This document shows, one piece after another, positions 10,063 through 12,582 of a stretch of DNA of 24,000 bases. The notes below the pieces were generated by a model. The model did not search any database and was not told where the DNA came from. It was given only the letters and a program-made list of their open reading frames with translations. How positions within the stretch are numbered: the stretch's first letter is position 1; each line of letters begins with the position of its first letter. The DNA comes from Methanolobus psychrophilus R15. Its GTDB lineage: Archaea > Halobacteriota > Methanosarcinia > Methanosarcinales > Methanosarcinaceae. The DNA lies in the NCBI GenBank assembly GCA_000306725.1, contig CP003083.1, forward strand, positions 2,258,042 to 2,282,041, written 5' to 3'. Made by a program: the position numbers and the translations under genes.

Positions 10063-11064
10063 CTATTTCCTCATCTCTTTTTTAATGTGATCTACAATTG
10101 CACAGGTCATCTCTTTAGTTGTATAGGCTCCGCCCAGGTCGGGAGTAATTATGCCCTCAGTAAGAGCAGCATCCACAGCTTCCTCAACGAGTGCAGCTTC
10201 CGACATGTGCCCCTGCCATTCCAGCATCATCTTAAGGCTCAGTATGGCAGCGATAGGGTTTGCTATGCCTTTTCCTGCGATATCCGGGGCACTTCCGTGA
10301 ACGGGTTCGAAGAACGCGTGGTTGGTGCCGATATTAGCGCTGGGTAGTAATCCGAGGCTGCCGACGAGTGCTGCAGACATATCGCTGAGGATATCCCCGA
10401 AAAGGTTGGTTGTGACTATCACATCGTATTTTTCAGGCGAGCTGATAAGTTTATAGGCCATTGTGTCCACTAGCTCGTCACTGTAGTCAACACCGTGCAA
10501 AGCCGCTGTCTCGCGGCAGACATCCAGGAAGAGTTTGTCGGATTTCATTACATTGGATTTATGGACAATAATGATCCTGTTTTTTCTTTCCTTTGCCAGT
10601 TTACAGGCGTAGGCGGCTATCCTCTCCGAGCCCTTGCGGGTGATAACTCTTTTTGTCCAGGAAGTATCCTGCCCGATTTCCTCTATTCCTGAATAAAGCC
10701 CTTCGGTATTTTCCCTGACGATCACGAAATTGAAATTACTTCTGTCAAGGATACCTCTCACAGTGGGCAGCGGCCTTATCGGGCGGATGTTGGCATACAT
10801 GTCAAGCTCTTTCCGGATGGTCAGGAGCACACTCTTATAGTTGGGATCAGGCGGGGTTGTGACAGCTCCAAAGAGTATGCAGTCACATCCTTTCAGGACC
10901 TCAAGATCCTCATCGGTAATAGCCTGGCCGGTCTTCTCCCATTTGCCATATCCCAGTTCCACAGGCACTTTCTCAACATCCAGTCCGAGCGCGTCCAGCA
11001 CCTCTACGGCCGCAGGGATCACTTCCTTCCCAATCCCATCACCCTCAATAACAGCAAGTTTCAA
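10063..11064 (-). CDS. Isopropylmalate/homoisocitrate dehydrogenase family enzyme (LeuB or methanogen AksF; context favours AksF-type)
   Basis: 333 aa. The family is marked by MKLAVIEGDGIGKEV at the N-terminus and FEPVHGSAPDIAGKGIANP. The start must be TTG (11064-11062), because an in-frame TGA lies three codons upstream. GAGGTGAT SD sits 3 nt upstream. I cannot separate LeuB from AksF by eye. Confidence 0.85.
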   Translation of the reverse strand: MKLAVIEGDGIGKEVIPAAVEVLDALGLDVEKVPVELGYGKWEKTGQAITDEDLEVLKGCDCILFGAVTTPPDPNYKSVLLTIRKELDMYANIRPIRPLPTVRGILDRSNFNFVIVRENTEGLYSGIEEIGQDTSWTKRVITRKGSERIAAYACKLAKERKNRIIIVHKSNVMKSDKLFLDVCRETAALHGVDYSDELVDTMAYKLISSPEKYDVIVTTNLFGDILSDMSAALVGSLGLLPSANIGTNHAFFEPVHGSAPDIAGKGIANPIAAILSLKMMLEWQGHMSEAALVEEAVDAALTEGIITPDLGGAYTTKEMTCAIVDHIKKEMRK

Positions 11065-11957
11065 TCCATCACCTCAACATTAGTTAAGAAGTTGTCCTGC
11101 CCCTTTAATTCCCTTATCAGGTCCCACACAGCACTGGCCACGAAGAACTCGGATGCTCCCCAGTGTACCACAGCGCCTTTGATACCCTTTATTGTTACAA
11201 TGCCTGACTTTTCCGAACGGCAGCATCTTGTTATAAAAGGCCTTGAAGGCTTAAATATATCCGACTTAAAGGGGCAGATATTCACAAAAGAGTAATCGAT
11301 CCCTGGAAATCTTGACTCGAAAAGGCTTCTCGATATTTCACATCCTACAAGTAGCGACCCATCCTCTGTGATCACATCGGAGTCAAGGCACTTACCATCC
11401 AGTCCCGATGAAGAGCATGGGAATACCGTTCCTTCTCCTTCAAATCGCCGCAGGTCTGTAAGGTTCTCCGAGAACTTCACTGCAAGGTCCCCGAACACCC
11501 CGCTTGCCTCAAGCCTCCTTATAACACTGGAAAGCCATGATGGCTCGGGTGGAACGACATCCACTATTTCGATATCAAGGATGGCTGATAGGTCCGGCTT
11601 GTGCACAAAGGTCACATGCATATCAATGCCTGTGAATATCACCGTGTTGACAATTCCCTTGCAGAGCTCATGTGCAGTTTCAATCAGAAGGGCACGGTCC
11701 TTGATGTTGAGTTGCCTGCCATACTTAATGATTTCCTCACCGCCGGCTATTCTCTCAAGAGAGCTGACATCCCGCAGGAGCTGGTCCCCTGTCTGGCTGA
11801 CCCGGTACAGAATGTATGTATCAGTCTCATCACCGCAGGAACAAAAGTTCTCTTCGATCATGTAGTCAGTGAGGAAATAGATGCGTCTGTCAGCGTCATC
11901 GGGAATGGGGTGAGTGACCCCCACATTCTTGTACTCTTGAGGAAAGATCATAGCCAT
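11061..11957 (-). CDS. Cys-rich conserved-looking protein of unknown function (9 Cys in 298 aa)
   Basis: This is the longest ORF in the interval. It is co-oriented with both neighbours. Its TGA overlaps the downstream TTG start (TTGA, 11061-11064). It begins 28 nt after the upstream gene's stop. Cys motifs are CSC, PCSSSG, GKC, GCE, ICP and RCCRS. I recognise no family. Confidence 0.6.
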   Translation of the reverse strand: MAMIFPQEYKNVGVTHPIPDDADRRIYFLTDYMIEENFCSCGDETDTYILYRVSQTGDQLLRDVSSLERIAGGEEIIKYGRQLNIKDRALLIETAHELCKGIVNTVIFTGIDMHVTFVHKPDLSAILDIEIVDVVPPEPSWLSSVIRRLEASGVFGDLAVKFSENLTDLRRFEGEGTVFPCSSSGLDGKCLDSDVITEDGSLLVGCEISRSLFESRFPGIDYSFVNICPFKSDIFKPSRPFITRCCRSEKSGIVTIKGIKGAVVHWGASEFFVASAVWDLIRELKGQDNFLTNVEVMD

Positions 11958-11985
11958 ATTGCAACTATCCGTATCAATTTAGATC

Positions 11986-12471
11986 TCATTCTTTTGCCGC
12001 AGCTTTCCTGTGCGCCACAAGTCCGCCATCGGTCAGTATTTCCAGCAGGAAGGCCGGTAGTTTGTTTCCATGACAGGTCCTTCCGTTGACCCTGACAGTG
12101 CCTTCAAGGAGGTTTATCTCCATCTCGTCCCCTTCATTGCACTCAACATCCACCTCTATCAAAGGAAGCCCCACATTTATAGCGTTCCTGAAGAAGATCC
12201 TGGCAAAATACCTGGCAACAACGCAGGAAACGCCTGCATGTTTAAGTGCAAGGGGCGCCTGCTCCCTGGAAGAACCGCAGCCGAAGTTATCTCCTGCAAC
12301 TATTATGTCACCTTTGCTGACCTTGCGGGGGAACTCGGGGTCAATGCCTTCCATCGCATGGTCAGCAAACACCTGCATGTCCGTTGTACGAAGGTATTTC
12401 CCGGGTATGATGACATCCGTATCGATATCGTTCCCGAAAATCCATACTCTTCCTTTGATTATGCTGTCCAA
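11986..12471 (-). CDS. hacB: Aconitase-family small subunit, homoaconitase type (HacB/AksE) rather than LeuD
   Basis: 161 aa. [29 protein letters not shown] matches LeuD/HacB N-termini. The substrate-loop reads YLRT (nt 12385-12396), which is the homoaconitase form in Methanocaldococcus; the isopropylmalate isomerase form is [14 protein letters not shown] is present. The start is TTG (12471-12469), with GGTGAT SD 3 nt upstream and an in-frame TAA five codons upstream. Confidence 0.65.
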
Positions 12472-12510
12472 TATATCACCTTGAATTTAGTGTAACAATT
12501 CTGTCCTCTG

Positions 12511-12518
12511 ATAAAAAT
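12511..12518 (-). promoter_or_regulatory. TATA-like box (ATTTTTAT on the minus strand) for the hacB operon
   Basis: It lies ~40 nt upstream of the TTG start at 12471. This would leave a short 5' UTR that contains the GGTGAT SD. Confidence 0.3.
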
Positions 12519-12560
12519 GTGTTCCGATGAATGCCTTGATAAGCAGATCATGGAACCAGG

Positions 12561-12582
12561 CGAAAAATGTAAAAAAGAAAGG
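12561..12582 (-). terminator. Oligo-T archaeal terminator after aglB (minus strand CCTTTCTTTTTTACATTTTTCG)
   Basis: T6 and T5 runs on the transcribed strand lie 12-35 nt downstream of the aglB stop (12594-12596). They precede the hacB promoter region. Confidence 0.45.

Follow-up and report, generated by a model that had tools for sequence, protein, structure and literature searches.

The stretch of DNA analyzed here (the window) comprises 24,000 nucleotides of the genome of the methanogen Methanolobus psychrophilus R15 (GenBank assembly GCA_000306725.1, contig CP003083.1), and the genes under study form a three-gene unit on its minus strand, the middle member of which, designated X, encodes a cysteine-rich protein of the DUF7714/XcbA superfamily. 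The unit opens with a hacB-type gene for the small subunit of homoaconitase (positions 11986-12471; 161 amino acids, TTG start), continues 28 nt further on with X (11061-11957; 298 amino acids), and closes with an aksF-type gene for a dehydrogenase of the homoisocitrate/isopropylmalate family (10063-11064; 333 amino acids, TTG start), the three genes being arranged head to tail. The TGA stop codon of X (11063-11061) overlaps the TTG start codon of the dehydrogenase (11064-11062) as TTGA (11061-11064). A preliminary description of this DNA had recorded that overlap, the motif YLRT at nt 12385-12396 of the small subunit and the presence of nine cysteines in the 298-residue frame, including CSC, PCSSSG and RCCRS; translation of the sequence confirmed all of these features and placed YLRT at residues 26-29 of the small subunit, in the loop context GKYLRTT. 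The source genome, a single contig of 3,072,769 bp (C1) in which the window corresponds to C1:2258042-2282041, was searched as a whole.

Direct reading of the sequence revealed expression signals around these genes. A Shine-Dalgarno-like AGGTGAT (12475-12481, minus strand), which presumably pairs with the 3' end of the 16S rRNA, lies 3 nt ahead of the hacB start, and a Shine-Dalgarno sequence, GAGGTGAT (11068-11075, minus strand), is located within the end of X, 3 nt upstream of the aksF TTG. Unlike these two TTG-started neighbors, X showed no clear Shine-Dalgarno sequence before either of the two in-frame ATG codons at its start (MAMIFP; window 11951-11957). All orthologues of X begin with (M/V/L)IFP, which makes the second ATG, at 11951, a possible true start that would give a protein of 296 amino acids. 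In the aglB-hacB intergenic region (12500-12580, minus strand), an oligo-T run comes directly after the stop codon of aglB and a TATA-like TTTTTATCA precedes the start of hacB by about 30-40 nt, which together suggest that hacB-X-aksF is a transcription unit of its own.

The identity of the flanking genes was determined by comparison with the family models for homoaconitase, isopropylmalate isomerase and their partner dehydrogenases. The small subunit of the window scored 227 bits against TIGR02087 (cut-off 109), and its top equivalog was HacB2_Meth (NF040625) with 217.1 bits, narrowly below the cut-off of 230, as compared to 179 bits for leud. The YLRT versus YLVY loop is said to have been given a role in small-subunit specificity by Jeyakanthan and colleagues in 2010. 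The sole other small subunit of the genome (C1:1881310-1881789) carries the loop YLIL, has TIGR02084 as its best match and showed the reverse scores (leud 222, HacB2 193 bits); the dehydrogenase that follows it passes the LeuB equivalog NF002898 (412.9 bits, cut-off 393). Because this true LeuD-LeuB pair (C1:1881310-1882947) was found elsewhere in the genome, the window pair is not LeuD/LeuB, an identity that would have spoken against the preliminary description, and it was rejected. The dehydrogenase of the window scored 332 bits against PF00180 and 468.9 bits against TIGR02088 (cut-off 409.8), and stayed under the AksF equivalogs NF040619 (356.1 bits, cut-off 500) and NF040626 (358.6 bits, cut-off 540). 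The window pair is therefore best read, by elimination, from the YLRT loop and from synteny in other orders, as putative hacB and aksF, the AksF assignment resting on elimination and synteny. Both large subunits of the genome are remote from the window. A third dehydrogenase, resembling isocitrate dehydrogenase and AksF (C1:1034834-1035892), was found convergent with a 447-residue LEU1-type synthase (region C1:1033383-1035892); the two may be a Re-citrate synthase and isocitrate dehydrogenase pair for 2-oxoglutarate synthesis. Alternatively, the true AksF could be this dehydrogenase, and the one in the window would then have to be read differently.

Family searches revealed that X, previously described as belonging to no recognizable family, is a member of Pfam DUF7714 (PF24830), with 303.1 bits (cut-off 25) and an alignment of X residues 3-283 to profile positions 1-279 of 280. 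It also matched the NCBIfam model XcbA_fam (NF052538) over its full length (67.3 bits, E = 1.3e-18), and since this score lies below the cut-off of 150, X represents a sister branch and not XcbA proper. All 21 diverse DUF7714 proteins tested matched XcbA_fam (best E = 1.7e-28). A profile built from these 21 proteins recovered only 296 representative proteins from a set of 1.84 billion, 57 with E <= 1e-30, and nine of ten sampled distant matches were true XcbA-family proteins (186-469 bits, cut-off 150). Profile-profile alignment of the DUF7714 and XcbA alignments with hhalign gave a probability of 100% (E = 1.1e-45, 261 columns, 24% identity), with the PC, GC, CP, CC and (H/P)WG motifs in register. 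One of the top matches, an XcbA-type protein at locus L153, lies inside an epoxide-carboxylase/SDR/XcbA/ComA/lyase/lyase/PLP (pyridoxal phosphate) enzyme cluster and carries a precomputed Pfam assignment to DUF7714. Judged from these comparisons, DUF7714, and X with it, forms the archaeal branch of the XcbA superfamily; X is a single-copy gene in the source genome, and its best named relatives are from Methanolobus. An AlphaFold (AF2) model computed from the 21-sequence alignment was confident, with a mean predicted local distance difference test score (pLDDT) of 89.9 and a predicted template modeling score (pTM) of 0.83. Foldseek of this model against the PDB returned no significant neighbor (best E = 0.045, TM about 0.2), and a sequence search of the PDB gave nothing significant, so that the fold is without a solved relative and structure offered no clue to the mechanism. 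Membership in COG1900 (no PF01837 or TIGR03287 match in the Pfam and NCBIfam scans) and in the CCG-domain proteins (no match in the Pfam scan) was rejected.

The only characterized relative, XcbA of Xanthobacter autotrophicus Py2, is the last enzyme of the bacterial synthesis of coenzyme M (CoM); the reaction reported for it is the reduction of sulfoethanethioaldehyde, which yields CoM (Wu et al., 2022; PMC9457059). The protein is reddish-brown, has nine cysteines, shows the electron paramagnetic resonance signal of a [2Fe-2S] cluster with a potential of -372 mV, and was called "not homologous to any known protein" by its authors, whose search gave no homologue of known function (PMC9457059). 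X and XcbA share PF24830, a length of about 290-300 amino acids over which they can be aligned end to end, five cysteines in PC, GC, CP and CC motifs together with a similar (H/P)WG, and a place in a biosynthetic cluster for a thiol cofactor of the methanogenesis type. They differ in profile identity (24%), in the score of X against XcbA_fam, in their neighbors, which are xcbB (ComA), the lyases xcbC and xcbD and the PLP enzyme xcbE for XcbA and hacB and aksF for X, in their hosts, that of X being a methanogen that makes CoM via cysteate, ComDE and MMP16, and probably in their substrates. The redox-active [2Fe-2S] cluster and the thioaldehyde reductase activity have been described for the Xanthobacter protein alone (PMC9457059). 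DUF7714 has been catalogued and is uncharacterized, and the literature searches found no paper naming it or tying it to XcbA, to coenzyme B (CoB) or to a CoB operon.

The cysteines of X are located at positions 39, 41, 99, 181, 190, 206, 228, 245 and 246. Alignment showed that C181, C206, C228, C245 and C246 are invariant in the 21 DUF7714 proteins and in 14 XcbA-type proteins, and that at least 90 of the 96 superfamily members compared retain them. The cysteine pattern emphasized in the preliminary description was thus borne out across the superfamily in its C-terminal part, while CSC, C99 and C190 proved to be lineage-specific and not conserved. CSC was rejected as a functional motif, since it is not conserved.

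Genomic context analyses, in which the three window proteins were compared by tblastn with 50 loci (30 from Methanosarcinaceae and 20 from 13 other families, given below as f numbers), revealed that the gene order of the window is conserved. The order hacB-X-aksF was present in all 30 Methanosarcinaceae loci and in 13 of the 20 others, a further four of which showed hacB-aksF-X (families f8 and f12), so that 47 of the 50 loci keep one of the two arrangements, with identities of X down to 32%; the exceptions were one f17 genome and two divergent f35 copies. Among the small subunits linked to X (n = 47), 45 carried YLRT, one HLRT and one YLRS. Such an adjacency, in 47 of 50 loci and in many families, is far beyond chance, and X stays between or beside hacB and aksF across four named orders of methane-metabolizing archaea, represented by Methanosarcinales (with Methanoperedens), Methanothrix, Methanocellaceae and Methanomicrobiales. 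None of the loci examined had X adjacent to comDE, cysteate synthase or MMP16, and the bona fide comD of the source genome, encoding the sulfopyruvate decarboxylase of the CoM pathway, lies 190 kb away.

In 14 of the 20 loci from outside the Methanosarcinaceae, among them L047:7351-12796, L052-L060 and L049-L051, the unit extends upstream, and clustering of the neighboring proteins showed that the aks genes are grouped with a 438-residue, IOR-alpha-like thiamine pyrophosphate (TPP) enzyme; ten of these 14 loci also contain methanogenesis marker 11 (mmp11) and a radical SAM protein. The complete order, found in several Methanomicrobiales-like families, is mmp11/radical SAM/TPP enzyme/aksA/hacA/hacB/X/aksF, with aksF last. 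Within this cluster, mmp11 corresponds to TIGR03280 and is TiaS TCKD-like, the radical SAM protein is weakly LipS2-like, and the aksA-type synthase, of 376 amino acids, is shorter than the LeuA equivalog models of about 500 amino acids that it partly matched. The extended cluster showed no COG1900 gene. The source genome has the corresponding genes at separate places, except that mmp11 and the gene of the TPP enzyme are adjacent at C1:2620691-2622992.

The distribution of DUF7714 was determined in 401 genomes of the source phylum, sampled evenly and at least 80% complete, together with 14 named control genomes, of which Methanocaldococcus jannaschii provided the only data point outside the phylum. 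DUF7714 was present in 178 of the 401 genomes, in an all-or-none manner within each numbered family, and McrA in 222; of the 178 holders, 170 scored for McrA. Every family with DUF7714 is a family with methyl-coenzyme M reductase (Mcr), and among these 401 genomes DUF7714 was not found in families without Mcr, so that the occurrence of X in non-methanogens lacking CoB, which would have told against a CoB function, was not observed. Named holders include Ca. Methanoperedens nitroreducens, a Methanocellaceae metagenome-assembled genome, Methanoculleus nereidis, Methanospirillum lacunae and Methanothrix, and among the control genomes Methanosarcina acetivorans alone scored for DUF7714.

The homology, the conserved cysteines, the synteny and the distribution of X indicate that it is very probably an XcbA-superfamily iron-sulfur (Fe-S) protein functionally tied to the synthesis of CoB precursors. 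To our knowledge, no step after 2-oxosuberate in CoB synthesis has a firmly assigned gene, and literature searches on these late steps found no gene assignment. By analogy with XcbA, we tentatively propose, with somewhat less than even confidence, that X is an Fe-S reductase by which the thiol of 7-mercaptoheptanoate is set free, a role in which cluster binding, substrate and step are all predicted. In such a reaction, the adjacent TPP enzyme would decarboxylate 2-oxosuberate to the aldehyde for X, and the substrate of X would be a sulfur adduct of 7-oxoheptanoate, either as 7-thioxoheptanoate or in the shape of a hemithioacetal or persulfide. This adduct appears the most likely substrate because X stays with hacB/aksF across orders and, in several families outside the Methanosarcinaceae, is clustered with aksA, hacA, the TPP enzyme and mmp11. 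Four of the five invariant C-terminal cysteines (C181, C206, C228, C245 and C246, in the motifs PC, GC, CP and RCC, plus HWG) would hold an Fe-S cluster; using the remaining cysteine as well, X would transfer two electrons to a C=S or S-S bond, which would free the thiol. This would yield 7-mercaptoheptanoate, which forms the thiol arm of CoB, in a reaction that would be the C7 analogue of that of XcbA. HdrB, with its CCG domains and five cysteines per motif, and ferredoxin:thioredoxin reductase both place an Fe-S cluster beside reactive cysteines and carry out the two-electron reduction of S-S or S-C bonds in one-electron steps. Their likeness to X would be a mechanistic analogy, as X has no CCG match, its cysteines differ in order and spacing, and it has no structural neighbor in the PDB. 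The genes mmp11 and that of the TPP enzyme are candidates for the ATP-dependent late CoB steps and the 2-oxosuberate decarboxylase. A more comprehensive proposal, in which DUF7714 is the dedicated 7-thioxoheptanoate to 7-mercaptoheptanoate reductase of Methanosarcinales, Methanotrichales, Methanocellales and Methanomicrobiales and the eight-gene cluster would supply the whole missing late pathway, with the TPP enzyme as 2-oxosuberate decarboxylase and mmp11 as an ATP-dependent threonine ligase or kinase, is considered less likely than not.

Several observations weigh against assigning the thiol step to X. DUF7714 was not detected in the M. jannaschii control, nor in several families of the phylum with McrA: it was present in 0 of 49 genomes of the Mcr-positive family f13 (McrA, of a divergent type, in 32 of 49), 0 of 4 of f10 (McrA 4 of 4), 0 of 4 of f14 (McrA 3 of 4), 0 of 2 of f20, 0 of 2 of f30 and 0 of 70 of f6 (McrA 7 of 70). 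A true XcbA-family protein reaching the NF052538 cut-off, which might have substituted for it, occurred in none of the 401 genomes, and f14 has an aksA-like/hacA/small subunit/aksF-like operon without X. Being missing from these families and from M. jannaschii, X cannot be a universal enzyme. In the f14 operons (L146:5130-9088 and L148:5361-9318) the small-subunit loop reads GKYKFD in place of YLRT. The activity of XcbA is itself based on one in vitro study (PMC9457059).

Genetic work on M. acetivorans points in the same direction. In this organism the primary synthase of CoM is MMP16 (MA3299, COG1900), whose gene adjoins cs/comDE. Removal of both MMP16 and L-ASST did not succeed, also when CoM and methionine were supplied, from which the authors inferred a shared essential role of COG1900 proteins, likely in CoB synthesis (PMC12068725). 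The failure to obtain this double mutant implies that X alone is insufficient for the thiol step. XcbA is not mentioned in that study (PMC12068725). The COG1900 proteins (MMP16/ComF: MA3299 and MJ1681; L-ASST: MA1821/MA1822) resemble X in the net chemistry proposed for it, in which an aldehyde, a sulfur source and two electrons yield a thiol; they have Fe-S or ferredoxin modules and have been suggested for the conversion of 7-oxoheptanoate to 7-mercaptoheptanoate (PMC12068725). They differ from X in being unrelated in sequence, in the broad distribution of MMP16 in methanogens (PMC12068725) as compared to the lineage-restricted X, and in that MMP16 clusters with CoM genes while X clusters with those for CoB precursors. 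Taken together, the patchy distribution of X and the COG1900 genetics speak against X as the sole or universal solution.

These genetic results also lend weight to the view that X serves another step or product, by supplying electrons to a COG1900 aldehyde sulfurtransferase of the CoB branch, by reducing a disulfide or persulfide, or by making a different thiol derived from a 2-oxoacid. Its patchy distribution suits an auxiliary, lineage-specific role, and divergent relatives occur in radical SAM-SPASM/NadA-paralogue and AIR-synthase-like contexts. The conserved cluster, however, contains no COG1900 gene, and both sulfurtransferases already bring a ferredoxin, MMP16 as a domain and L-ASST as a subunit (PMC12068725). 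A role of this kind, although it deserves consideration, is regarded as unlikely. A function in CoM synthesis would keep the chemistry of the only characterized homologue (PMC9457059): X would reduce sulfoethanethioaldehyde, formed from sulfoacetaldehyde and sulfide, as a sulfide-dependent backup, and its presence among the aks genes would indicate no more than that the two thiol cofactors are regulated together. Mutants of M. acetivorans lacking MMP16 do have a sulfide-dependent CoM backup, with a half-maximal effective concentration (EC50) of 137 uM, which was attributed possibly to L-ASST, the published candidate, with a non-orthologous enzyme not excluded (PMC12068725). The attachment of X to hacB/aksF in 47 of 50 loci, its separation from comDE, cysteate synthase and MMP16, and its distance from comD make this function distinctly improbable.

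A redox or Fe-S accessory of chain elongation, which would reduce or repair the labile [4Fe-4S] cluster of HacAB or carry electrons, would agree with the position of X right after hacB, its translational coupling to aksF and its five invariant cysteines, and the cluster of XcbA is redox-active and of low potential (PMC9457059). Yet proteins of the XcbA family function in clusters without an aconitase-type enzyme, and both M. jannaschii and f14, with its aks-like operon, are without X. M. jannaschii presumably has a homoaconitase. Further, hacA encodes the subunit that carries the cluster ligands of homoaconitase, and this gene is not adjacent to X in Methanosarcinaceae. We consider the accessory role the least probable of the readings weighed here. 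The preliminary suggestion that X is a candidate for a CoB step, or for Fe-S or sulfur handling, is supported, as all four findings that would have told against it failed to appear: the flanking genes are not LeuD/LeuB, DUF7714 was confined to Mcr families among the 401 genomes, X maps to the family of a thiol-forming Fe-S reductase and not to an unrelated one, and the gene order is conserved. The suggestion lost the unconserved part of its cysteine argument, and the function itself stays an inference.

Coenzyme B is required by every reaction of methyl-coenzyme M reductase, in methanogenesis as in the anaerobic oxidation of methane and alkanes. For its thiol-forming step, X is a candidate with five defined cysteines and a characterized homologue of fitting chemistry (XcbA), and its conserved gene cluster supplies further candidates, for a decarboxylase and an ATP-dependent enzyme. 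The results further link XcbA of the bacterial CoM pathway to a widespread archaeal family, DUF7714, and X provides another possible explanation of the thiol backup that depends on sulfide in M. acetivorans. If the proposed role in the thiol step is correct, X would offer a lineage-specific marker or target in methanogens of the Methanosarcinales, Methanotrichales, Methanocellales and Methanomicrobiales.

Some minor features were observed at the loci compared. Several Methanosarcinaceae loci have a gap of about 0.7-0.9 kb between X and aksF; at L002 (2503-3063), the only one in which the gap was read, it holds a gene for a 186-residue multi-pass membrane protein which, by eye, resembles the manganese exporter MntP. 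The two divergent DUF7714/XcbA-like copies of f35 (L061:2869-6902 and L062:5312-7368) lie away from hacB/aksF: the former is divergent to a radical SAM-SPASM/NadA-paralogue/Fe-S gene set, and the latter directly follows a gene related to AIR synthase (PurM/SelD/HypE-like).

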